Positions 10,495 through 32,693 of a DNA stretch of 64,000 nt are shown in pieces (the first letter of the stretch is position 1; every line of letters starts with the position of its first letter). The translations under genes and the position numbers were made by a program. The notes beneath the pieces were generated by a model. It searched no databases. It was not told where the DNA came from and was given only the letters and a program-made list of their open reading frames with translations. The DNA lies in assembly GCA_963747235.1 (NCBI GenBank), contig CAVVEU010000008.1, positions 192,001 through 256,000 on the forward strand, in the 5' to 3' direction. Origin of the DNA: an uncultured Candidatus Rokubacteria bacterium (lineage in GTDB: Bacteria > Methylomirabilota > Methylomirabilia > Rokubacteriales > CSP1-6).

Positions 10495-11337
10495 TCAGGC
10501 GGACGGCTGCAGCATGAGCGTCGGGACGCCGCAGGTCCCGTCGCGCACCGTGAAGACATGCGTGCCCGGCTTGCGGCCGGGGCGGGCTTCGGAGACGTCG
10601 AGGCCGGCGCCGCCGAGGCGGGCGATCGCCGCCGGCGGGTCGTCCGTCCGCCAGGAGAGGCCCCAGAGGCGGTCCGGTCCGGCGGAGACGCCGGCGCGCA
10701 GATCGTGGGCCAGCTCGACGATCAGTCGCCGCAGCGGAAGAACATGAGCCGCGCGCCCCACGCGGGATTCGACCGGTCGAGGCGCATGTCGAGCCCGAGG
10801 CGCGCGCCGTAGAGCGCGGCGGCCCGCTCGGGATCGGGCGTGCGGATCACCACGTGGTCGAGCCCGGTGACCTCGCCGGGCGCGGCCGGCGGCGGGGCGG
10901 GGAGCGGCGCCTCGCGCTCGATCAGGAAGATGCGCACGCCGTGGGTCGCCGCCGTCGCGGCGCGGGTACGGCGCCAGCGGCGGCGCGCGCCGGTGGCGCG
11001 GTCCACGCTCTCCGCGGCGGCGACCGGCTCCGGATCGAGGCCGAGCCGGGTGAGGCGACGATGGGCGCGCTCCACGTCGTCCACCGCGAAGGCCAGGCTC
11101 GCGAGCCCTTCGCCCTGGGCGTCGAGGACGGCGCGCAGGCGCTCCGCGCCGGGGCCGTCGCCCGCGGGCGCGATCAGCTCCGCCGCGACGTTGGCGAGCT
11201 GGAAGACCGCGGTCTGCGCCGCCGCCGGCCGCGTCCGCGCGCCAGCACGGGGGGCGGCCGAGCAGGCGCTGGTAGGCGGCGATCCCGGCGTCGAGATCGC
11301 GCACCGCGATGACCACGTGATCGAGTGCTTGAATCAT
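10495..11337 (-). CDS. Two-domain VOC/glyoxalase family protein (frameshifted)
   Basis: [11 protein letters not shown] and [11 protein letters not shown] repeats spread across frames; shifts near 11220 and 10725. Confidence 0.75.
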
Positions 11338-11401
11338 GCGACGGCTTCGTCGCGCGGAGCCAGGGTGGCGGGCACGGTGCGGGAAGTGTAGCATTCAGCC
11401 G

Positions 11402-12289
11402 ATGGCACAGCCGATTTCCGCCGCCGATCCGTATCCGCGTCGCCGCGTGGCGACGCTCGACACCGAGATGGCCTACGTGGACGTGGGCGCGGGCGATCCG
11501 GTGGTGTTCCTCCACGGCAACCCGACCTCGTCCTATCTCTGGCGCAACGTGATCCCGCACGTCGAGGCGCTCGGCCGCTGCCTGGCTCCCGATCTGGTCG
11601 GCATGGGCGACTCGGGCCGGGCGCCCGCGGGCTCCTATCGCTTCGTGGACCACGCGCGCTATCTCGACGCCTGGTTCGACGCGATCGTCCCGGCGCGCCC
11701 GGTGACGCTGGTCGTGCACGACTGGGGCTCGGCGCTGGGCTTCGACTGGGCGCGGCGCCACCCGGAGCGCGTGCGCGGCGTCGTCTACATGGAGGCGCTC
11801 GTCCGGCCGGTGACGTGGGATGAGTGGCCGGAGCCGGCGCGGAAGGTCTTCCAGGCCATGCGGTCACCGGGCGGCGAGGAGATGGTGCTCCAGAAGAACG
11901 TGTTCGTGGAGCGGATCCTGCCCGCGAGCGTGCTGCGCGGCCTGACCGAGGCCGAGATGACGGTCTATCGCCGGCCGTACCTCGAGCCCGGCGAGTCGCG
12001 CCGCCCGACGCTGACCTGGCCGCGGCAGATCCCGATCGACGGCGAGCCCGCCGACGTCGTGGCCATCGCGGACGCGTACGCGACATGGCTGGCCGCGGCC
12101 GCCGACCTGCCGAAGCTCTTCGTCAACGCCGATCCGGGCGTCATCCTCACCGGGCCGCAGCGCGAGTTCTGCCGGCGCTGGCCGAACCAGCGGGAGGTCA
12201 CGGTGCGGGGCAGCCACTTCATCCAGGAGGATTCGCCGGACGAGATCGGCGAGGCGGTGGCCGCGTTCGTGGGGCGGCTGCCGCGCTGA
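11402..12289 (+). CDS. Haloalkane dehalogenase (HLD-II, LinB/DhaA-like)
   Basis: [18 protein letters not shown] nucleophile Asp-Trp, YMEAL acid, GSHFIQED base His. Confidence 0.9.
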
Positions 12290-14338: not shown

Positions 14339-15015
14339 CGGACCAGGGCCCCGCGGTCGAGCGTGGCCACGCGATCGGCGACCGCCTCGGCCACCGCCGT
14401 CTCCCGCTCGGTCAGCACGATCGTCGCGCCGGCGGCGCGCAGCTCGGCGATCAGCGCGGCCATGCCCGGGCGGTCTTCCAGGGGCAGGCGGCCGAGCGGG
14501 CTGTCGAGGAGGAGCAGGCGCGGCGCCAGGGCCAGGGCCTGGGCCAGCTCGAGCCGCGCGAGCTCCGCCGCCGAGAGCGCGTCGCGGCGCCGGCGCGCGT
14601 CGGCGGCGAGCCCGACGCGCTCGAGCAGCGCGGCGTCGCGCGCGCGGCCGTCCGCGCCGGGCCAGCGGGCCGCGACCGCGCTGAGCGGGCCCCAGCGCGG
14701 CCAGCGTCGCGCCAGCGTGATCGCCTCCGTGACCGCCAGGGACCAGGGCGGCGTGGAGATCTCGCCGACCCGGACCAGCCCCTGCCGGGCGCGCTCGCGC
14801 GGATCCGTCCCGGTGATCTCACGGCCGTCGTAGATCAGCCGGCCGGACTCGAAGGGGAGCGAGCCGGTGAGACAGCGCAGGCCGACGGTCTTGCCCGCGC
14901 CGGCGGGGCCGCAGAGCGCGAAGATCTCGCCCTCCTCCACGGTGAACGAGAGCGCGTCCAGCACGGCGACGCCGCCCACGCGGCAGGTGAGGCCGACGAC
15001 CTCCAGTATTCTCAT
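14335..15015 (-). CDS. LivG-like ABC ATP-binding protein, degenerate motifs
   Basis: Walker A GPAGAGKT; Walker B LLLLDS (Glu missing); H-loop TER. Confidence 0.7.
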   Translation of the reverse strand: MRILEVVGLTCRVGGVAVLDALSFTVEEGEIFALCGPAGAGKTVGLRCLTGSLPFESGRLIYDGREITGTDPRERARQGLVRVGEISTPPWSLAVTEAITLARRWPRWGPLSAVAARWPGADGRARDAALLERVGLAADARRRRDALSAAELARLELAQALALAPRLLLLDSPLGRLPLEDRPGMAALIAELRAAGATIVLTERETAVAEAVADRVATLDRGALVR

Positions 15016-15021
15016 GCGGGC

Positions 15022-15890
15022 CTAGCAGTCCAGTCGCGTCACGCGGGCTCCAGTCGAGGTCAGCGCGCGCACGCGCTCCATGAGGCCGGCCTGGTCCATC
15101 GTGGCCAGGCGCTGGCCGAGTACCACCGGGCGGCCGTGGACCCACACGTCGGTCACCGCCTGGTGGGACATCGCGTACACCACGTTCTTCAGCAGGTGCG
15201 CCCGCGGATGCAGCGACGGGTGCTCGAGATCCACCGCCACCAGGTCGGCGAGCATGCCGGGGGCGATGTCGCCCGCGGGCAGGCCCACAGCCGGCCGCCG
15301 TCCACCGTGCCCATCGCGAAGGCCTGCTCGGCGGGGAGCCGCGTGCCGTCGAGATGCCGCACCTTCTGGAGCAGCGCGGCCATCCGCATCTCCTCGAACA
15401 CGCTCAGGCGATTGTTGGTGCAGCCGCCGTCGGTGCCGAGCCCGATCAGGATGCCGAGCGCCTTCATCTCGGTGATGCGGGTGATGCCGTCGCCCAGGAT
15501 CATGTTGGACGACGGGCAGTAGGCGAGCCCGGCCCCGCGGTCGGCCATCAGGCCGAGCTCCTCGTCGTCGAGCCACACGCAGTGCACGCCGATCATGCGC
15601 GGGCCCAGCACGCCGAGCTTGTCGAGCAGGCGGATGGGCGTGGCCCCGTGCTCGGCGAGCGTGCGCTGGCCCTCGTACTGGCCCTCGGCGGCGTGGATGT
15701 GGAACTTGGTGTTGGCTTCTTCCGCGACCTCCCAGCCCGCGCGGATCATGGCGGGCGAGGCTCCGTGGGGGCTGTGCGGGGCCGGCTGCACGGCCACCAG
15801 CGCGTCGCCGGTGTGCGCGCGGATCAGCTCGCGGACCCGGCGCGCCGCGTCCGCGGGGGTCTCGCGATAGCGGGCGGGGGCGGTCTTCTC
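15022..15890 (-). pseudogene. Amidohydrolase (MTA/SAH deaminase-SsnA-like) lacking its N-terminal part
   Basis: APHSPH, HIHAAE, VHCVWL, CPSSN, LGTDGG, ADLVAVD; no N-terminal HxH region; frameshift near 15290. Confidence 0.7.
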
Positions 15891-19310: not shown

Positions 19311-21305
19311 ATGGACGTCACCGAGATCATCTGGCGGCCCGACCCCGCGGCGGCCGCGCGCACCCGCATGGGCCGCTTCATGGCGCAGCACGGTCTCGCG
19401 ACCCTGGAAGACCTCCAGCGGCGCTCGATCGCGGAGCCCGAGTGGTACTGGGACGCGGTCTCCCGCGACCTGGGCCTGCACTGGTTCACGCCGTACCGCC
19501 GCGTGCTCGACGAGTCGCAGGGCATCCCGTGGCCGCGCTGGTTCGAGGGCGGCCGGCTCAACCTCGCCGACAACTGCGTGGACCGGCACATCGCCGAGGG
19601 ACGCGGCGGCAAGCCCGCGGTGATCGCCGAGGCGGAAGACGGCACGGTGCGCACGCTCACCTACGCGGAGCTGGCGGGGGAGATCAACCGGCTCGCCAAC
19701 GCGCTCAAGCGGCTCGGGATCCGGCCCGGGCGACACGGTCGGGATCTTCCTGCCCATGTGCGCCGAGGCGGTGATCGCCACGCTCGCGGTGGCGCGCATC
19801 GGCGCGGTGTACACGCCGTGCTTCTCCGGCTACGGCGCGCAGGCGGTGGCCTCGCGGCTCGACGGCTGCGGCGCGCGCCTGCTCATCACCGCGGACGCCT
19901 TCGCGCGCCGCGGCCAGGCGATCCCGCTCAAGCGCACCGCGGACGAGGCGGTGAGCGCCTCGCCCACCGTGGAGCACGTGATCGTGTACCGCCGCGGCGA
20001 CGGCGACGTGCCGTGGAAGGACGGCCGCGACCTCTGGTGGCACGAGCTGGTGGCCAAGGAGTCCACGGAGTGCCCCGCGCTGCCGGTCGAGGCCGATCAT
20101 CCGTGCCTGATCATCTACACGTCGGGCACCACCGGCCGGCCCAAGGGCACCGTGCTCACCCACGGCGGCTTCTCGATCAAGAACGCGCACGACTTCGCCT
20201 ATCTCTTCGACCTGGGCGAGAACGACCGGCTCTTCTGGGTGACCGATCTGGGCTGGCTCATGGGGCCGATGCTGATCGGCGGCGCCCTGCTCACCGGCGG
20301 CACCGCGGTGCTCTTCGAGGGCACGCCCGACTATCCGAAGCCGGACCGGCTCTGGTCCGTGCTGGAGCGCCACCGCGTCACCGTGCTCGGCATCTCGCCC
20401 ACCGCGGTGCGCGCGCTCATGCCCCACGGCGCCGAGTGGGTCACGCGCCACGATCTCTCGTCGCTCAAGCTGATGGCCTCGACCGGCGAGCCGTGGAACC
20501 CCGAGCCCTATCGCTGGCTCTTCGAGACCGCGGGGAAGGGCAAGCTGCCGATCATCAACTACACGGGCGGCACCGAGATCTCGGGCGGCATCCTCTCGTG
20601 CTTCCCGATCGCGCCCGATCAAGCCGTGCTCGTTCGCGGGGCCGATTCCCGGCATGGCCGCCGACGTCTACGACGACGACGGCCGGCCGGTGCGCGGGCA
20701 GGTGGGCGAGCTGGTCGTCACGCGGCCGTGGCCGGGCATGACCGCGGGCTTCTGGAAGGACCGCGAGCGCTACCTCGAGACCTACTGGTCGCGCTGGCCC
20801 GACGTGTGGGTGCACGGCGACTGGGCCTACGTCGATCCCGACGGCTTCTGGTTCATCCAGGGGCGCTCGGACGACACGCTGAAGATCGCGGGCAAGCGGG
20901 TGGGCCCGGCCGAGGTGGAGTCGGTGCTGGTGGGCCACCCGGCGGTGGCCGAGGCGGCCGCCATCGGCGTGCCGCACGAGATCAAGGGCGAGAGCGTGGT
21001 GTGCTTCGCGGTGCTGCGCCCCGGCCAGCAGCCGTCCGAGGCGCTCCGCGCCGAGCTCATCGAAGCACGTCGTGCGCTCGATGGGCAAGGCGATCCGCCC
21101 GGAGCGCGTGCTCTTCGCGCGCGAGCTGCCCAAGACCCGCAGCGCCAAGATCATGCGGCGGGTGGTGCGCGCGACCTACCTCGGCAAGGACCCCGGCGAT
21201 CTCTCCTCGCTCGACAACCCCGGCGGCGTGAAGGCGATCAGCGACGCCCAGTACGAGGGTTTCCCTCACCAATCCCTCTCCCCCTCGGCGGGAGAGGGTC
21301 AGTAA
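19311..21305 (+). CDS. Acetate/acyl-CoA ligase (AMP-forming), several frameshifts
   Basis: [39 protein letters not shown] across frames. Confidence 0.85.
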
Positions 21306-21338
21306 CCCTCCCCTCAGGGGAGAGGGTAGGGTGAGGGG
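21263..21338. repeat. REP-like element, inverted doublet overlapping 3' end of acyl-CoA ligase
   Basis: CCCTCACCAATCCCTCTCCCCC...CCCTCCCCTCAGGGGAGAGGGTAGGGTGAGGGG. Confidence 0.8.
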
Positions 21339-21343
21339 TGGTG

Positions 21344-23270
21344 CTAGGCCGCCCGCCGCCGCGAGTACGCGAAGGCGCCAACGATCAGCAGCACCAGCAC
21401 GAGCTGGGTGATCACGCCCTGCCACGTCGGGTAGAGGCCGAGCGACGGAATCGCGGGCAGGTCGAGCGGGCCGACCGGCAGGGTGCCCGCTTGCTGGAGC
21501 GCCGCGATGCCCTTGCCGGCGAGCACGACCGCCAGGACGGCCATGAGGATCGAGCCCAGGCCGAAGAACCAGCCGATCGGCAGCCGCAGGCCCAGCTTCA
21601 GGATCAGCCAGGCGAGCAGCCACGAGGCCCACGACGGCGGCGGCGAAGCCCCGCGCCCACCGCGACGCGGCCCGTCGGGGCCCGCCTCGAGCCAGAGCGC
21701 CTGGTAGAACAGCACGGTCTCGAACACCTCGCGGTAGACCGCGAGGAAGGAGATGGAGCCGAGCGCCCACATCGTGCGGCCGGAGAGGGCGGACTGCCAC
21801 GCGCGTCTCGATGAAGGCCTTCCAGCGCGCCGCGTGGGCGTGGCGGTGCATCCAGAAGCCCACGTAGAGCAGCATGGCCGCGGCCAGCAGCGCGGTGACG
21901 CCCTCGGTGATCTCGCGGCTCGGCCCCGCTCAGCGTGACCAGGTACGAGGCGGCCAGCCAGGTCAGCGCCGCCGAGCGCGAGCGCGGCGATCCAGCCCGC
22001 GTGCACGTAGCGCAGCGCCTCGCGGCGGCCCGACTTGATCAGCATGCGCGATGAGCGCGGCCACCACCAGGATGGCCTCGAGCCCCTCGCGCAGCAGGAT
22101 GACGAGCGCGCTCGTGAAGATGGTGGCGGGGGAGAGCCGGGCCGCGTCGAGGCGCTGGCGGGCGGTGACGAGCAGGGCCAGGATCGCGCGCGCCTGCGCC
22201 TCGACCGCGTCCACCGGCGCGCCGCGACTGGAGCAGGGTCCGGTAGCGCATCATCTCGGCCTCGACGCGGGTCTTGAGCGCGCCGTCCACCGCGCCGAGC
22301 GGGGCCTCGACCAGCTCGAAGCCCTCGAGATAGCCGGTGACGGCCAGCCGGTGCGCGCGCGGCGCGTCGCCGCGCCGATAGGCCTCGACGCTCTCGCCGG
22401 AGCAGGCGCGCGCTCAGATCGAGGGCGCGACTCGCGGCCCGATCGCGACCGCTTCGGGCTCGCTCGCGCAGGTAGGCCAGCACCGCCGCGCCGTCACCGC
22501 CCGGCGCGCGGTCACGTCGCGCGGCGTCGCCATCACCAGGGCGCGGAGGTCGCCGCAGCTCGCTCTTGCCCGCGCCGCCCTTCCAGAGCGCGGCGCCGCG
22601 CGCGCGCGCTCGTCGCCCGAGCTGGCGAGCGTGCTCACGTGGAAGGCCAGGGCCCACCGCTGCGCCTCGCTCAGCGCCGGGAAGCCGGTCATCGCCGTGC
22701 CCTTGATGCCGAGCGTGATCGTGTTGTAGAGCCCGAAGACGCTGTGCTGGCCCTGGCGGGCCGCGTCGGTGAGATCGGCGGGCGGCGGCGTCAGCCCCTT
22801 GGCCGCCGGGCCGTCGCCCCGGCCGGCGGCGCCGTGGCAGACCGCGCAGTGGGTGGCGAAGTCGGCGGCGGCGGGGCGCGAGATCCGGCGCCTGCCGGGG
22901 GCGACCCGCACCTGGTAGAGCTCGATGATGCGCCGGCGGAGGTCGCCCGCGATCGCGCGCCACTTCCTCGCCCGGGCCGCTTGTCGCCGGATCGCGCCCA
23001 CGAGGCCGCCGCCGTCGCCTCGAGCGCGGCGCGCTCGGGCCGGCCGGGCAGCTCGGCGATCATGGTGCGCACGCCGGTCGGCGAACTCGAGCTGCTCGTC
23101 GTACTCGCCCTGGTCGACGACCTTGCCGTCCTTGACCGCGCTCCGGATAGTCGACGCCCAGGTAGTCGAGCACGTGCAGGATCGGCGCGAAGGGATCGGC
23201 GTCGGCGGCGACGCGCGGGGCCCGCCGTGAGCCCGACGCGCCGGGTCAGGAGAGTCAGGACGCGCGCACG
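21344..23270 (-). CDS. Cytochrome c / FTR1-family iron permease fusion (PbrT-like), heavily frameshifted
   Basis: CAVCHG haem motif; ILLREGLEA and VYREVFET REXXE motifs; YLEGFELVE; start approximate. Confidence 0.8.
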
Positions 23271-25474: not shown

Positions 25475-26723
25475 ATGCGCATGCGACAGACCGTGAAGTG
25501 GCTGTGGGGTGTGGCTGCTCGCGATGGCCCTGGCGATGGCGCCCGCCGCGCCGGCCGTGGCCGACGAGACCTGCCAGTCCCCCTTCCTGCCCAAGGTGAC
25601 GGGCCAGGAAGACTTCATCTACGTGTGGACCCTCGGGGTGAAGGGGGTGGCGGACGGCAACGACAGCATCGTCACGGTGGACGTCAACCCGACGTCGGGC
25701 CGCTACGGCCAGATCGTCCACCGGGCCCCGGTGCCCGGCCAGCACGAGGCCCACCACGCCGGCTTCACCGATGACCGGCGGTTCCTCTGGGCGGGCGGCC
25801 TCGACACCAGCCAGATCTTCATCTTCGACGTGGCCACGAACCCGGCCCAGCCGAAGCTGGTGAAGACGATCAAGACCTTCGTGAAGGACACCGGCGGCCT
25901 GGTGGGCCCCCACACGTTCTACGCGCTGCCGGGGCGGATGCTGATCTCGGCCCTGTCCAACGCCAAGGACGGCGGCGGCCGGACCGGGCTGGCCGAGTAC
26001 AGCAACGACGGCCGGTTCATCCGGACGATCTGGATGCCCGCGGAGGCGGTCTACGGCTACGACGTGCGGGTCAACGTCAACCTCAACCGCATGCTCACGT
26101 CGTCGTTCGCGGGCCGGAAGAACTACATGCGGCCGATCGGGGAGCTCCTGAAGGACGGCGAGGCGATGAAGCAGTTCGGCTCGTCGGTCATCGTGTGGGA
26201 CTTCCACGCGCGCAAGCCGCTGCAGGTGCTCTCGGTTCCCGGCGCCCCGCTCGAGCTCCGGTGGGCGCTGCTGCCGAATCACCCGTACGCCTTCACCTCC
26301 ACCGCGCTCACCGGGCAGCTCGTGCTGATCCACCAGCAGGCGGACGGCAAGTGGGCGGCCAAGAACATCGCCGAGATCGGGGCCAATATCCCGGTCGACA
26401 TCAGCATCGCGCCCGACGACAGCAAGATCTACGTCAACTCCTACGGCGACGGCACGATGCGGATCTACGACGTGACCAATCCGTTCGAGGGCAAGCTGAT
26501 CCACCAGGTGAAGCTCGGGGACCAGGCCAACATGGTGTCGACCTCGTGGGACGGCCAGCGCGTGTACGCCACCACCTCGCTGCTCTCGCAGTGGGACAAG
26601 CCCGGCGATCAGTGGCTCAAGGGCATGGCCTGGGAGGACGGCAAGCTGGTGCCGAAGTTCACCACCGACTTCACCAAGGTCGGCCGCGCGCACATCATGA
26701 ACTTCGGGAGCAAGTCCCGGTAG
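25475..26723 (+). CDS. SBP56-family selenium-binding protein / methanethiol oxidase-like, exported (indel in signal peptide)
   Basis: Signal peptide then DETCQSP, YVWTLG, EAHH, GPHT, PLELRW, SLLSQWD; SD GGGAGG. Confidence 0.85.
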
Positions 26724-26725
26724 CC

Positions 26726-27424
26726 ATGCGGAGCCGTCTCGGTCCGGGCGCGCTCGCGGTCGTCCTGGCCGCGGGCGCGCTGGGGCCGGGGATCGCGACG
26801 GCGCATTCGACCGGCCCCGCGGCCCCGGACGAGTTCATCCAGGGCGCGTTCACCCCCGCGTTCGTGCCGCCGCCGCCGGGCAGCTACGAGCTGCCCGCGA
26901 TCAAGCGCGTGGGCGCCTTCACGCTCCGCGACACCGCGGGGCGGGCGGTGGACACCCGCTCGCTGATGGCGGGCAAGATCGCGGTGGTGAGCTTCATCTA
27001 CACCGCGTGTCCGGACCGGCTCGGCTGCCCGCTGGCGAGCCAGACCCTGCGCGATCTCCAGGCGCGGCTGCGCGAGAGCGGGCTCGCGCGGCAGGCCGCG
27101 CTGGTCTCGATCAGCTTCGATCCGGAGCGGGACCATCCCGCCCAGCTCGCGAAGTACGCGCAGGTCTACGACGCCGATCCCGCGCTCTGGCGCTTCCTGA
27201 CCGCGCCGTCCGGACGCGTGCTCGACGCGGTGCTGGAGAGCTACGGGCAGGACCGGACGCCCGAGCGGGACGAGCGGGGCCGGCCCACCGGACGCATTCG
27301 CCACGTGCTGAAGGTGTTCCTGGTGGATCGCGAGGGGTTCATCCGCAACGTCTACAGCGCGGGGTTCCTGGTGCCGGAGCTGGTGCTCAACGACATCCGC
27401 ACCCTCACCCTGGGCGAGCGCTGA
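26726..27424 (+). CDS. SCO/SenC-family copper chaperone
   Basis: SFIYTACPDRLGCP, SISFDPERD, RH...VFLVD; signal peptide. Confidence 0.85.
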   Translation: MRSRLGPGALAVVLAAGALGPGIATAHSTGPAAPDEFIQGAFTPAFVPPPPGSYELPAIKRVGAFTLRDTAGRAVDTRSLMAGKIAVVSFIYTACPDRLGCPLASQTLRDLQARLRESGLARQAALVSISFDPERDHPAQLAKYAQVYDADPALWRFLTAPSGRVLDAVLESYGQDRTPERDERGRPTGRIRHVLKVFLVDREGFIRNVYSAGFLVPELVLNDIRTLTLGER

Positions 27425-27491
27425 CCCCTCACCCTCAGGGCCCCTCACCCTCAGGCCCCCTCACCCTACCCTCTCCCCAGAGGGGAGAGGG
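27425..27491. repeat. REP-like element with two extra tandem copies of its 5' arm
   Basis: CCCCTCACCCTCAGG x2 then CCCCTCACCCTACCCTCTCCCCAGAGGGGAGAGGG directly after TGA. Confidence 0.85.
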
Positions 27492-27499
27492 TTCGCCCG

Positions 27500-28036
27500 C
27501 TAGAGGACGTAGAGGAGGGGACGGGCGCGCAGCGACGCCTCGTCCCAGAAGCCGGTGGCGCGCAGCTCGTCGAGCGCCTTGGCCGCGTCGTCGCCGCGCA
27601 TGACCGCGAGGGTCTCTCCGCCCGGGAAGAACCCCCCGAACGCCATGCGCCCACCGCCCCGCGCCTCGATCAGCGCGAACGACGCCATCTCCACGTCGGG
27701 GGCCACGCCTTCCACCAGCATCACCGGGCGCGAGCCGTCGGTGACGAGCGGGGGCAGCTCCCAGGGCTCGAGGAACTGGGAGAAGGAGCGCGGCGTGTAG
27801 CTCAGCCAGACCCCGCCCGTGAAGTAGGGATCCTCCTCCACCAGGCGGCGCAGGTCGTCCGGCTGCTGGAGGCGGTAGAACACGTCGGCCCCGCGACCGT
27901 CCGGGGTGGGCCCGCCGCCGATGACGAGCCCTTGCGATCGGAGGCCCATGAGCCGATCGAGGTGGGTCTTGCGATGGGGCTCGCGCTTCTGCAGGTAGTC
28001 GTCGCCGGTCTTGATCGCGACGTGGAAGACGATCAC
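27500..28036 (-). CDS. Extended YciI-family protein
   Basis: REPHRKTHLDRL, GGP, EEDPYF; second degenerate half; GTGA overlap with upstream gene. Confidence 0.7.
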   Translation of the reverse strand: MIVFHVAIKTGDDYLQKREPHRKTHLDRLMGLRSQGLVIGGGPTPDGRGADVFYRLQQPDDLRRLVEEDPYFTGGVWLSYTPRSFSQFLEPWELPPLVTDGSRPVMLVEGVAPDVEMASFALIEARGGGRMAFGGFFPGGETLAVMRGDDAAKALDELRATGFWDEASLRARPLLYVL

Positions 28037-28791
28037 GGCGTCACCCAGCCGCCCGCGAACGGGATGACCTGGCCGATGAAGAAGTCGGCGTCCTCGGAGG
28101 CCAGGTACACGGCCAGGCGGGCGGATTCCTCGCCGCGGGCGAGCCGGCCCGCCGGGATGTTCTTGACCATGCGCGCGAGGCGGGCCGGGTCGCCGGTGAG
28201 GGCGGGCGGGAAGTAGGTCGGGTTCTCGACGTAGTTCTGCGCGATCGCGTTGACCTGGATGCCCGCGCCCGCCACCTCGCGCCCGACCGCCTTGGTGAGG
28301 CCGTTCACGCCCGCCCGCGCCGCGGTGTAGGCCGCGTAGTTGGGGAGGCCGGGGAACGCGGCGGCCGAGGACATGTTGATGATCTTGCCGCGCCCGGCCG
28401 GCCGCATCACCCGGAGCGCGGCGCGCAGGCAGAAGAACGGCTCGTCGAGCAGCCGCGCCATCATCTCGCGCCACGCCGCGTCGGTGATCTCCTCGACCGG
28501 GCTCCCGGACGGCGGGTGCGCGTTGTTGTTGACGAGGATGTCGAGCCGGCCGAAGCGCGCCACCACCGCCTCCACCGCGCGCTCCGCCTCGCCCGAGCGG
28601 CTCAGGTCGCCGCCGAGCGAGAGCACGTCGCGCCCGAGGCGCTCCGCGATGAGCGCGTAGGGCTTGATCGCCGCCTCGTCGCGGTCGTGCAGCGCCACCG
28701 AGGCGCCCTCGCGGCAGAACTCCTCGGTGATGGCGGGGCCCATGAAGTGGCTGACGTTGGTGATGAGGGCGATCTTTCCGGTGAGCTTCAT
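28033..28791 (-). CDS. Halohydrin dehalogenase (SDR fold, HheD-like)
   Basis: T-X4-F-X-G (TNVSHFMG) and S-X12-Y-X3-R (SAAAFPGLPNYAAYTAAR); QVNAIAQNYVENPTYFP. Confidence 0.82.
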   Translation of the reverse strand: MKLTGKIALITNVSHFMGPAITEEFCREGASVALHDRDEAAIKPYALIAERLGRDVLSLGGDLSRSGEAERAVEAVVARFGRLDILVNNNAHPPSGSPVEEITDAAWREMMARLLDEPFFCLRAALRVMRPAGRGKIINMSSAAAFPGLPNYAAYTAARAGVNGLTKAVGREVAGAGIQVNAIAQNYVENPTYFPPALTGDPARLARMVKNIPAGRLARGEESARLAVYLASEDADFFIGQVIPFAGGWVTP

Positions 28792-28882
28792 GGGCCGGTG
28801 ACCTTCATGGCCCCGAGCCTACTCGGGGCTTCGCGGCCGCGCAAGGCCGTGGTAACGTGAGGGCGCGGGCAAGGGAGGTGCC

Positions 28883-31472
28883 GTGGCCGTGGCAGAGCAG
28901 CTCCTCGAGTCGTTCAAGGCCCGCTACCAGTTTCCGCTCGACGACTTCCAGCTCCGGGCCATCGCGGCCATCCTCGACGGCAAGTCGGTGATCGTGTCCG
29001 CGCCGACCGGCTCGGGCAAGACCCTGGTGGCCGAGTTCGCCATCCACGCCGCGCTCGCACCGCGGCCGCCGCATCGCCTACACCACGCCGCTCAAGGCGC
29101 TCTCCAACCAGAAGTACGCCGACTTCGTCCGCCAGTGGGGCGCCGAGCAGGTCGGCATCCTCACCGGCGACGTCAAGGTCAACTCCCGCGCGCCGGTGGT
29201 GGTGATGACCACCGAGATCCTGCGCAACATGTTCTACTCGGGCGGGCTCGCGGGCCTCGACACGGTGGTGCTCGACGAGTGCCACTACATGGGCGACGAG
29301 GGGCGGGGGACGGTGTGGGAGGAGATCATCGTCAACTGCCCGAAGGACGTGGCCCTGGTCGCCCTGTCCGCCACCGTGCGCAACGTGGACGAGATCGCGG
29401 ACTGGATCAGCCTGGTGCACCGGCCCATCGTGGCCATCACCCATCCGCACCGGCCGGTGCCGCTGCAGTACCTGGTCGCGGACCTCTCGGGCGAGATCCA
29501 CACCTACGACGCGGTCCGCCACGGGAAGGTGCGCCTGCTCGGCGAGGAGCGCGAGGGCGGCTACAACGACCGCGGGCGCTGGTACACGCGCCGGGTGGTG
29601 GATCCCACCGTGATGCTCGACGAGCTGGAGAGCCGCGGGTGGCTGCCCGCCATCTACTTCATCTTCAGCCGCGCGGGCTGCGAGCGGGCGATGGAGACGG
29701 TCCTGGCCGAGGGCAAGCCGCTGCTGACGCGCGAGCAGCAGCGGCAGGTGGACGAGGCGATCCGCGAGCAGGTCACCGACAACCCGACCATCGCGGAGTC
29801 GCCGCTCAACCAGACCATCTTCCAGGCGCTCGGCATGGGGGTCGGGCTCCACCACGCGGGCATCCTGCCCACCGTGAAGCGCTTCATCGAGCTGCTCTTC
29901 GAGCGGGGCCTCTGCAAGGTGGTGTTCGCCACCGAGACGATGTCGCTCGGCATCCACATGCCGGCCAAGAGCGTGATGCTCCAGTCGCTGACCAAGCGCA
30001 CCGACCGCGGCTTCCGCAGCCTCACCCACAACGAGCTGACCCAGATGGCGGGGCGCGCGGGCCGCCGCGGCATCGATCCCGAGGGCAAGTGCGTGATGGC
30101 CCTCGACGTGCGCGACGGGCTCGACGACATGAAGCGGGTGGTGAACGGCCCGCCCGAGCCGATCGCGAGCCAGTTCAAGCTGGGCTACGGCTCGGTGGCG
30201 CTCCTGCTCTCGACCGGCAACGACCTCGCGACGATCCGGCGCATCGTCGAGTCCTCGTTCGGGCAGTACCAGAACATGAAGCGCATCAAGTCGCTCGAGA
30301 CCGACGTGCGAAGCCTCGAGATGGCGGTCGCCGACGGCCAGCGCTTTGACGCCCCCTGCGGCGACTTCGCGCGCATCGGCCGCTACCGCCAGGCCCGCTC
30401 CGAGCTCGAGGTGGCGCGGATGGCGCGCGGACGGGGCGGGCGGCGCGGGCGCGCCGCGGCGGACGCGGAGCCCGGGCGCCTCGCGCTGGTGCGGCGCAAG
30501 AGCGGCGCCAGCCTCGGCCTCATCGTGGGGGTGGACCGGCGGCGGCACCGCGATCTGATCCAGGTGCTGCTGGCCCACGGCGGCACCGTGCAGATGAAGG
30601 AAGGCAACGTGAAGCGCGTCTTCTGGCAGACGCCGCCGCTGCACGTGCCGCGCGACTGGGAGCAGCGCACCCGCGGGCTCACCGAGCAGATGACGCGCCT
30701 GTCGGTGCCCGAGCTGATCGAGCGCGAGAAGAGCCACGGCCCGGAGGGCGCGCTCGCCGCCATCGAGTGCCACCGCTGCCCGTGGGGCTCGCAGAGCCGC
30801 TGCGAGCAGGCCTGGAAGGGCCTCGACGGGGTGGACCGGCAGCTCGCCCAGAAGCGGGAGATGCTCGACGCCTTCCGCAACGCGTACTGGCAGGAGTTTC
30901 TCCGGGTCGTCGAGGTGCTGGAGCGCTTCGGGGCGGTGCAGGACGCCAAGCTCCTCGCCAAGGGCCAGCTCATCGCCGGGCTCCGGCACGACAACGAGCT
31001 GCTGGTGGCCGAGGTGGTGGACCGCGGCGTCCTCCGCGACACCACGCTCGCGGAGGCGGCCGCGCTCTGCTCCGGGCTCATCGAGGAGTCGCGCTCCGGG
31101 GACGCGGCGGTGGCGCGGCTCTTCCTCAAGAAGCGGCCCAAGATCAAGCGCAAGCTGCAGGAGATGGAGTCCGTCGCGAACACCGTGCTCGAGGTCCAGC
31201 GGCGGCACGGGCTGCCGATGCCGGTGTCCATCTCCACCGGCTTCATGCCGTCGGTGTTCCGCTGGGCCTCCGGCGAGGACGACTGGTCCGCGATCGTGGA
31301 GGAGTCCTTCGGCGGCCACGAGGGGGACCTGATCCGCGCCATGCGGCGGCTCATCGACGTCCTGCGCCAGCTCGCGGAGTCGCCCGAGGTCGAGCCGGTG
31401 GTGGCCGGCCTCCTGAGCCGGGCGTCCCGGGTCATCGACCGCGGGATCGTGCTGGAGTCCGCCCTGATTTGA
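28883..31472 (+). CDS. Ski2/HelY-like DEAD/DEAH RNA helicase (frameshift near 29060)
   Basis: APTGSGKT, PLKALSNQK, DECH, LSAT, QMAGRAGRRG, DSHCT EGDLIR. Confidence 0.9.
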
Positions 31473-31525: not shown

Positions 31526-32032
31526 ATGAGCCGACTGACCCGCTCGTCCTCCCGGCTGGCCGCGGCGGCGCTCCTGACCGCCGCGTGCGCGGCGACCGAG
31601 CCCGTGCTCGAGCGCACCACCCGGGGCCCCAACGCCGAGGAGTTCTTCATCATGCAGTCGTTCGCGGTCAACGGCCGGAGCCCCAACTTCGACGAGAAGC
31701 GCGTCTGGCAGGACCAGATGGACGAGAAGGTCTTCAAGTATCTCCGCGAGCATCCGGAGCTCGAGAACACGTCGCGCTACAGCGAGTTCCGCTTCTGGCG
31801 CCAGGTGACCAGCGGCAGCACCCCCGGCGAGGTGAAGATCCTGCTGGGCGAGCCGCGCGAGCGGACCATCGATTCCGCCCTGATGGCCTCGCTCGGCGAG
31901 CAGCACTGGCAGGCGGTCCGGACCACCGCCAAGGAAGCCTGGGTGTACCCGCTCGGCTGGGTCGTCTTCTTCGACGACAAGGGCGTGGTGGACCTGCTCC
32001 GTCGGGTCTCGCCGCTCGATCGCGAAGAATAG
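31526..32032 (+). CDS. Hypothetical lipoprotein (BamE/SmpA-like C-terminal motif)
   Basis: Lipobox LTAAC; GSTPGEVKILLGEP...EAWVY. Confidence 0.6.
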   Translation: MSRLTRSSSRLAAAALLTAACAATEPVLERTTRGPNAEEFFIMQSFAVNGRSPNFDEKRVWQDQMDEKVFKYLREHPELENTSRYSEFRFWRQVTSGSTPGEVKILLGEPRERTIDSALMASLGEQHWQAVRTTAKEAWVYPLGWVVFFDDKGVVDLLRRVSPLDREE

Positions 32033-32036
32033 CTGC

Positions 32037-32693
32037 GTGCTAGACTTGGGCGTCTTCACGACGACGCCCATGCCGAGTACGAGTGCCCTCACGTGGATCG
32101 AGCCGGGAGCGAGCGCCACCCTCATCTGGCACGGCGCGGTGGCGTCCCAGCCCGGTGGCGGCCGGCTCTACGTGGTGTCCGGCCCCATCCTGGAGCTGCC
32201 CCCCGCGTCCCCCTACTTCATCCTCGCCGCCGAGGAAGACGACGACTTCGCGGCGCGGCTCTATCGCGACCAGGTGACGCTGCCCGACCTGCGCGCCTTC
32301 CTGGCCCGCTGCCGCGTCACTCGCGGCGCACTGGTGGACGACCAGCAGTACGTCGCCGCCGCCGAGGAGGCGCCGGTGCTCGCGGTGCTCGACGACTGGC
32401 GCGAGCGGTCGGGGCCCCCGGCGCTGCCGTATCTCGACGACATCAACGCGTTCATGCCCGCGGCCGCCCCGCTCTACGTGACCGCGGAGGCCCACGCGGC
32501 CGCGCAGCGCGAGGCGGAGCAGTTCAGCACCGCGTGGGTGTGCGACGAGTGCGGCGAGGCCGAGGACGCGGGCGTCTTCTTCTGGACCGCGCACCGCGGG
32601 CCGGTGGTGCGCGTGTGCTTTCTCATCCACAACGACGCCGGGGTCTGGACCTGCCGGCTCCACCCGTTCGAGTTCGCGAAGGAGACCGCATGA
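32037..32693 (+). CDS. Hypothetical protein with C-terminal Cys/His cluster
   Basis: GC3-biased ORF; CDEC...C...H...C..H; ATGA overlap with next gene; start uncertain. Confidence 0.6.
   Translation: MLDLGVFTTTPMPSTSALTWIEPGASATLIWHGAVASQPGGGRLYVVSGPILELPPASPYFILAAEEDDDFAARLYRDQVTLPDLRAFLARCRVTRGALVDDQQYVAAAEEAPVLAVLDDWRERSGPPALPYLDDINAFMPAAAPLYVTAEAHAAAQREAEQFSTAWVCDECGEAEDAGVFFWTAHRGPVVRVCFLIHNDAGVWTCRLHPFEFAKETA

Follow-up and report, generated by a model that had tools for sequence, protein, structure and literature searches.

In the stretch of DNA analyzed here (64,000 nucleotides from an uncultured Candidatus Rokubacteria bacterium; hereafter, the window), a gene that databases label an SDR probably encodes a cofactor-free lyase of the halohydrin dehalogenase (HHDH) type. 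We consider it fairly probable, taking all of the evidence together, that this enzyme belongs to a conserved Rokubacteria lineage and that the YciI protein encoded beside it is an inherited neighbor. The two genes and their junction are as follows.

28033..28791, minus strand: HHDH-type gene (hhdh), 252 aa, SDR fold
28033..28036, minus strand: GTGA stop/start overlap of hhdh and yciI, 4 bases, junction ...ACG CCG TGA / GTG ATC
27500..28036, minus strand: extended YciI gene (yciI), 178 aa from GTG, two ferredoxin-like domains

Pfam, NCBIfam, and public records all label the 252-aa protein an SDR, as a preliminary description of this DNA had expected of annotation pipelines. That description had also read T-X4-F-X-G and S-X12-Y-X3-R in the gene in place of GxxxGxG and YxxxK, and regular-expression searches agreed: motif 1 is TNVSHFMG (T11/F16/G18), motif 2 is SAAAFPGLPNYAAYTAAR starting at S142 (S-X12-Y-X3-R; triad S142/Y155/R159), and none of TGxxxGxG, GxxxGxG, YxxxK, or S-X12-Y-X3-K was found in the protein. 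These two motifs were said to define HHDHs, and Schallmey and Schallmey give the same definition, with motif 1 (T-X4-F/Y-X-G) replacing the SDR glycine-rich motif (PMC4989007). Their review reports activity for 19 enzymes chosen by these motifs, and its Table S1 has no Rokubacteria enzyme among its entries. Motifs 1 and 2 occurred jointly in 1e-4 of 20,000 shuffles of the 252-aa protein. A TGxxxGxG-type motif was present in 110 of 150 library representatives, and among those 110, motif 1 was found in none and motif 2 in two. Both HHDH motifs were present and the SDR motifs absent in 120 of 120 close homologues among the matches listed (92 to 98% identical and not independent), and the HHDH motifs were kept in 27 of 30 related loci read in one frame.

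Searches against solved structures pointed the same way. The best PDB sequence matches to the 252-aa protein were HheD8-M3 (8XXB; PMC11782660) at 148 bits, the "dehalogenation enzyme" 6A41 at 145, and HheD2 (7B73) at 136; the best NAD(P) SDR reached 118 bits. S142, Y155, and R159 align with the triads of 8XXB and 6A41, and motif 1 and the halide-pocket loop (NYVENPTYFP, residues 186 to 195) match those in solved HHDHs, to which overall identity is only 30 to 37%. HheG scored below the D and A types (100 bits; 30% identity). A profile search put 14 HHDH entries first, a ranking that is partly circular, given an alignment that included 19 motif-picked relatives. We rejected the fold search as a means of telling HHDHs from SDRs, since classical SDRs rank level with HHDHs: the predicted model (pLDDT 93) is equally near NAD(P) SDRs (FabG, 2UVD; VIA Z 35.6, rmsd 1.8 over 245) and HHDHs (6A41; VIA Z 34.5, rmsd 1.6 over 241).

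A tree of 78 rows combined the window protein with 18 of the 30 related loci, 19 of 27 motif-2 representatives (fragments dropped), and 40 SDRs, the latter being the first 40 SDR representatives of 235 to 275 aa. Solved HHDHs are not among its rows, and its clades were labeled via PDB searches of one member each. NAD(P) SDRs split from the Ser-Tyr-Arg proteins with support of 100/99. The phylogeny proposed earlier as a check thus places the 252-aa protein away from NAD(P)-dependent SDRs, with motif-picked relatives as rows rather than the named HheA to HheG. The protein lies inside a Rokubacteria clade (99/99) that stands outside both the A/C-like (100/99) and B/D-like (100/99) clades, and the closest full-length representative beyond that clade is 48% identical to it. 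We also observed an unlabeled three-member Ser-Tyr-Arg clade (P0247, P0249, and P0252; 100/97), 41 to 48% identical to the window protein, in which motif 1 is varied (Leu/Met, Gln, or Asp where the aromatic region stands).

The level ranking in the fold search would also suit an unusual SDR that binds NAD(P), has Arg in place of Lys, and is no lyase, and so would three features of the protein: a full-length Rossmann core, the acidic residue that follows strand 2 (HD36), and a GDL segment. However, motif 1 with its aromatic residue replaces the glycine-rich loop, the tree separates the protein from SDRs, and 6A41 has HD at the same place; we therefore regard this reading as very improbable. Motifs, top PDB matches, and tree position together support the assignment well, and the 252-aa protein is very likely HHDH-type.

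Among characterized enzymes, the window protein resembles the D type (HheD8, 8XXB; HheD2, 7B73), which gives its best phmmer match, and the B type (HheB, 4ZD6) in both motifs, the QN(F/Y)VENPTYFP loop, and the C-terminal GGW. Unlike these D/B-like HHDHs, which are about 225 to 235 aa and lack a helix and strand after strand 2, it keeps both elements; it is about 34% identical to HheD2 and falls in a separate clade. With the A/C-like HHDHs (6A41; HheA, 4Z9F; HheC, 1PWX) it shares the motifs and the triad spacing, and 6A41 is its top Foldseek match (TM 0.90; 35% identity), but it again falls in a separate clade and has no HheC-type C-terminal extension. On this sequence evidence, the Rokubacteria proteins likely form a new HHDH lineage or subtype outside the A to D groups, in a tree that knowingly holds no E, F, or G reference. 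A later HHDH subtype, H, exists.

The mechanism that we propose follows HHDH chemistry, in which Ser positions the hydroxyl, an Arg-activated Tyr takes the proton, and the halide goes to the motif-1 pocket (PMC4989007; PMC11976700). Ser142 would bind the substrate hydroxyl, whose proton would be taken up by Tyr155 under activation by Arg159; the alkoxide would then displace the neighboring halide or another anion, giving an epoxide, while the leaving anion would enter a pocket that Phe16 and the NYVENPTYF loop line. In the reverse reaction, the 252-aa enzyme would open epoxides, acting as a cofactor-free lyase in either case. The residues are read from the protein itself; HheC supplies the mechanism, and HHDH activity is inferred. 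We expect with high confidence that the enzyme is active as an HHDH in vitro; as a member of the class, it would also be expected to form a homotetramer.

The distribution of the family was examined in a GTDB genome scan with a 55-sequence YciI alignment, in which 221 stretches matched and 30 loci were confirmed; the scan used two short patterns, and 30 is a lower bound. Twenty-two of these loci are assigned to Rokubacteria, Methylomirabilota, or Methylomirabilia. The remaining eight are from soil MAGs with other taxon names; they have the same gene order, and those included in trees nest among Rokubacteria rows, which suggests that the MAGs are mislabeled. Atlas clusters for one stored homologue had Methylomirabilota as the commonest taxon, and across the GTDB scan and the Atlas clusters the family was found only in Rokubacteria-type DNA (the window is 71% G+C). 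Selection was compared across the 17 loci whose matches are intact and lie in a single frame (136 pairs, uncorrected). Mean identity and pN/pS were 83% and 0.28 for HHDH, 85% and 0.26 for the helicase on the far side of hhdh, 71% and 0.45 for YciI, and 75% and 0.39 for GGT. HHDH is therefore constrained about like the neighboring helicase and more tightly than YciI or GGT. Among plasmids, HHDH had no match at E 1e-35 and YciI a single partial one, and no catabolic or mobile context was found around hhdh. These data point to vertical inheritance of HHDH in Rokubacteria under strong conservation and not to a recently acquired pollutant gene. Accordingly, the enzyme appears to have a standing physiological job, most likely the detoxification or recycling of natural haloalcohols or epoxides.

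Other genes bear on whether that job involves halogens.

11336-12289, plus strand: haloalkane dehalogenase (NCBIfam NF002938, 444 bits; cut-off 241), about 16 kb from hhdh
14541-15251 of related locus L029, plus strand: type II haloacid dehalogenase (TIGR01428, 156 bits; cut-off 125)

The haloacid dehalogenase cluster also occurs in L006, L013, and L016, making 4 of 30 loci, a few kilobases downstream of yciI. A soil metagenome study assigned many dehalogenase genes, apparently no HHDHs among them, to Rokubacteria (PMC10385969); dehalogenation appears to go unmentioned in a genomic description of the group (PMC5712423). Because of the haloalkane dehalogenase in the window, the haloacid dehalogenase at related loci, and the assignments of the metagenome study, halogen metabolism in the host organism is plausible.

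A Ser-Tyr-Arg protein could nonetheless serve a naturally halogen-free reaction, for example cyclizing, isomerizing, or opening an endogenous epoxide, with dehalogenation as a side activity. Conservation at a housekeeping level suits this reading, as does the lack of catabolic or mobile context and of a plasmid match at the threshold used. The pocket residues after S142 also vary by branch (AAAFPGLPN versus AAGIPGLAR), a review allows other physiological functions for HHDHs (PMC4989007), and the substrates on which HHDHs have been assayed are probably unnatural ones (PMC11976700). Against it, the protein retains motif 1 and the halide-pocket loop of solved HHDHs, and further dehalogenases are encoded by the host in the window and, according to the metagenome study, in Rokubacteria. 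We judge a halogen-free role possible but the less probable case; it overlaps our preferred explanation of an HHDH-type lyase, from which it differs solely in the natural substrate.

The neighboring 178-aa protein had been described as YciI-like, and family searches, predicted structure, and conserved residues bear this out. Pfam YCII (PF03795) covers residues 7 to 81 at 28 bits (cut-off 24), and the fold and catalytic dyad agree; the protein scored below the cut-off of every one of four NCBIfam YciI models. Relatives fell into 475 clusters, and the best 120 of the 475 are almost all 178 aa. The predicted model contains two beta-alpha-beta-beta-alpha-beta units, with pLDDT 82 and a pTM of 0.51 that leaves the domain arrangement unsure. 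The N-terminal domain (residues 1 to 90) superposes on HI0828 (1MWQ; Z 11.5, rmsd 2.2, 86 residues aligned) and on TftG (4LBH; Z 10.9, rmsd 2.8, 85 residues, 24% identity), with the His and the Asp of DPY conserved. The C-terminal domain (about residues 100 to 178) matches CutA/RAM-type ferredoxin folds at Z of about 8 to 9, near the level that common arrangements attain. All 30 of 30 YciI rows share R18, R22, H25, R28, and D69-P70-Y71 without variation. The His25-Asp69 dyad aligns with that of HI0828 and is kept by the first domain only; no conserved His-Asp pair was found in the C-terminal domain across the 30 rows. Unlike HI0828 and TftG, the window protein is of double length, has a second ferredoxin-like domain without the dyad, and carries Ala at the apparent oxyanion Ser position. 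Ala stands there, beside invariant Asp51, in 113 of 120 homologues among the matches listed, in an alignment that is gapped and weak at this point. A comparison of the two domains by hhalign for internal duplication gave E 0.089 and a probability of 0.6%, although the order of secondary structures does match. The His-Asp dyad and an Arg/Ser oxyanion hole are general to the YciI family, in which roles are poorly defined (PMC7641849, PMC4850264). The protein may be a single-chain pseudo-dimer with one active site, and the two-domain YciI is probably an independent acid-base enzyme, with one His-Asp site and a degenerate second domain.

We then considered whether the two genes form a functional unit, as the preliminary description had proposed. 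The comparison includes a third gene as a synteny control.

28883..31472, plus strand: divergent DEAD/DSHCT helicase, in two frames here

The two parts of the helicase share one frame in, e.g., L001. An HHDH gene or its remnant lies upstream of yciI on the same strand in 30 of 30 loci, all of which were gathered with the YciI query, so the linkage proposed for checking is conserved; the helicase is adjacent in 30 of 30 as well. GGT was present in 24 of 30, several of the misses being short contigs. Downstream of yciI the neighbors vary (SCO in 5 of 30 loci, bacterioferritin in 16 of 30). The reported GTGA overlap of the hhdh stop with the start of the 178-aa gene was read directly at the junction, and the same -4 overlap occurs in 23 of 30 related loci. 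Translational coupling, inferred earlier from that overlap, thus extends to those loci, whereas the other seven are uncoupled, with a gap of 51 to 2311 bp between hhdh and yciI. In L025 and L026, an opposite-strand CHASE2/cyclase gene lies between the two. A single branch splits coupled from uncoupled loci in both gene trees (20 of 30 loci used), and the counts of the two states therefore amount to one event. On whether the overlap was gained or lost, the trees disagree: the uncoupled loci are basal in a small rooted tree (support 85 to 87) and nested in the 78-row tree. A -10-like TAnnnT box stands 7 nt ahead of the yciI ATG in 5 of 7 uncoupled loci versus 0 of 23 coupled loci, on a background of 64 in 12,738 start triplets (0.5%). 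In L030, yciI is whole, but hhdh has an internal loss of about 560 bases and pieces of the intervening genes are deleted too; an assembly error is possible. YciI is probably cotranscribed and translationally coupled with HHDH in one branch of the lineage. Separately, in two of the uncoupled loci, L022 (9367-9783, plus strand) and L025 (7686-8102, plus strand), the gene that overlaps the hhdh stop (ATGA) is not yciI but one for a hydrophobic protein of 138 aa that has no Pfam match.

In a dedicated two-step module, HHDH would make an epoxide and the YciI His-Asp dyad would activate water or another nucleophile to remove it, or YciI would prepare the HHDH substrate. Gene order and strand are constant in all 30 loci while the downstream genes vary, the -4 overlap recurs in 23, and the YciI catalytic residues are invariant, all of which would fit such a module. 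So would the neighborhood: no conserved epoxide hydrolase was found among 34 annotated neighbor proteins within 10 kb (most of the clusters present in at least two loci, from a noisy ORF clustering), and YciI would take the place of the epoxide hydrolase that adjoins HheC in its operon (PMC11976700) and that the window locus lacks. Few HHDH genes adjoin an epoxide hydrolase, and other roles for them are open (PMC4989007). The further dehalogenases of the host are compatible with a module too, and TftG and ClcF, both dehalogenating enzymes, are the second and third structural matches of the two-domain YciI model. Nevertheless, the helicase is equally linked, and correlations of pairwise identity reveal no excess codivergence of HHDH with YciI (0.88) compared to the helicase (0.90) or GGT (0.90). 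The 23 overlaps reduce to one event on one branch; the uncoupled branch has its own promoter-like boxes ahead of yciI, a gene on the opposite strand intervenes there, and L030 shows decay of hhdh. The Ala at the apparent oxyanion Ser position, as far as that low-confidence alignment goes, also speaks against a module, and the absence of any HHDH-YciI fusion among 5,805 longer candidates does so weakly. The sole fusion match, P0393, was discarded as artefactual, since it contains no HHDH part and consists of a YciI that continues, out of frame, into the downstream methyltransferase.

We consequently regard a two-step module as unlikely, and its fullest form, a native Rokubacteria pathway for organohalides and epoxides, with a new HHDH subtype passing its epoxide to a two-domain YciI that replaces the epoxide hydrolase, as distinctly improbable. 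Of the processing unit proposed earlier, the HHDH assignment and the conserved linkage stand, but the linkage is no tighter than that to the helicase. As to the connection drawn to TftG, that enzyme acts on a chlorinated hydroxyhydroquinone according to its PDB title (5-chlorohydroxyhydroquinone, in the context of a chlorophenol pathway), which has no chemical connection to halohydrins, and no chloroaromatic or chlorophenol pathway genes were found among the annotated neighbors here. The pair looks more like a conserved syntenic block, held together mainly by inherited gene order, than a dedicated module, in line with our preferred reading of an HHDH-type lyase beside an inherited YciI neighbor.

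Several local elements surround the pair.

28816..28844, minus strand: promoter-like site, TTGCGC-17 nt-TAGGCT, 7 nt ahead of an ATG
28778..28811, minus strand: 17-bp direct duplication of the hhdh start, which makes a 6-codon ORF (28808-28788)
27399..27498, no strand assigned: intergenic repeat with hairpin, CCCTCACCCT copies and ACCCTCTCCCC/GGGGAGAGGGT, separating the yciI stop from the convergent SCO gene
25509-27424, plus strand: SBP56/methanethiol oxidase-like gene (NF052453, 620 bits, just under the cut-off of 650), then SCO1/SenC gene

The promoter-like site is so near an ATG that it suggests a leaderless mRNA, and 24 of 30 loci have a TAnnnT box 5 to 10 nt ahead of the hhdh ATG; a strict scan for sigma-70 promoters and terminators found nothing. 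The stop of the 6-codon ORF overlaps the hhdh ATG (ATGA), and similar ATG-containing duplications precede hhdh in L001, L005, L024, and L028. We take the intergenic repeat to be REP-like. Only 5 of 30 loci have the SBP56-like and SCO1/SenC pair here, and it lies on the convergent strand; a link between hhdh and these genes was rejected on those grounds. Elsewhere in the window, two conserved genes (140 and 218 aa; 31612-32693, plus strand), neither with a Pfam match, lie between the helicase and GGT, as they do in most related loci. The helicase (28883-31472) and the acetyl-CoA synthetase-like and cytochrome c-FTR1 genes (19311-21334 and 21344-23001) are split between frames, suggesting sequencing indels in the assembly; hhdh and yciI are intact.

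Our literature search found no work joining HHDHs with Rokubacteria, Methylomirabilota, or YciI, in a field in which much HHDH work sits in journals and supplements beyond the search. HHDHs are a known class of enzyme, but this lineage appears to be undescribed, as do its strong conservation and its two-domain YciI neighbor. The natural role of HHDHs is an open question, and other physiological roles are possible (PMC4989007). Since HHDHs are valued biocatalysts, the Rokubacteria lineage is a candidate source of a new enzyme for synthesis. If YciI were a partner of the enzyme after all, the pair would give HHDHs a natural context and the largely uncharacterized YciI fold a new reaction. Hidden under SDR labels, under strong purifying selection, and in fixed synteny within an uncultured soil group, this lineage offers a clean case in which to approach the natural role of HHDHs.
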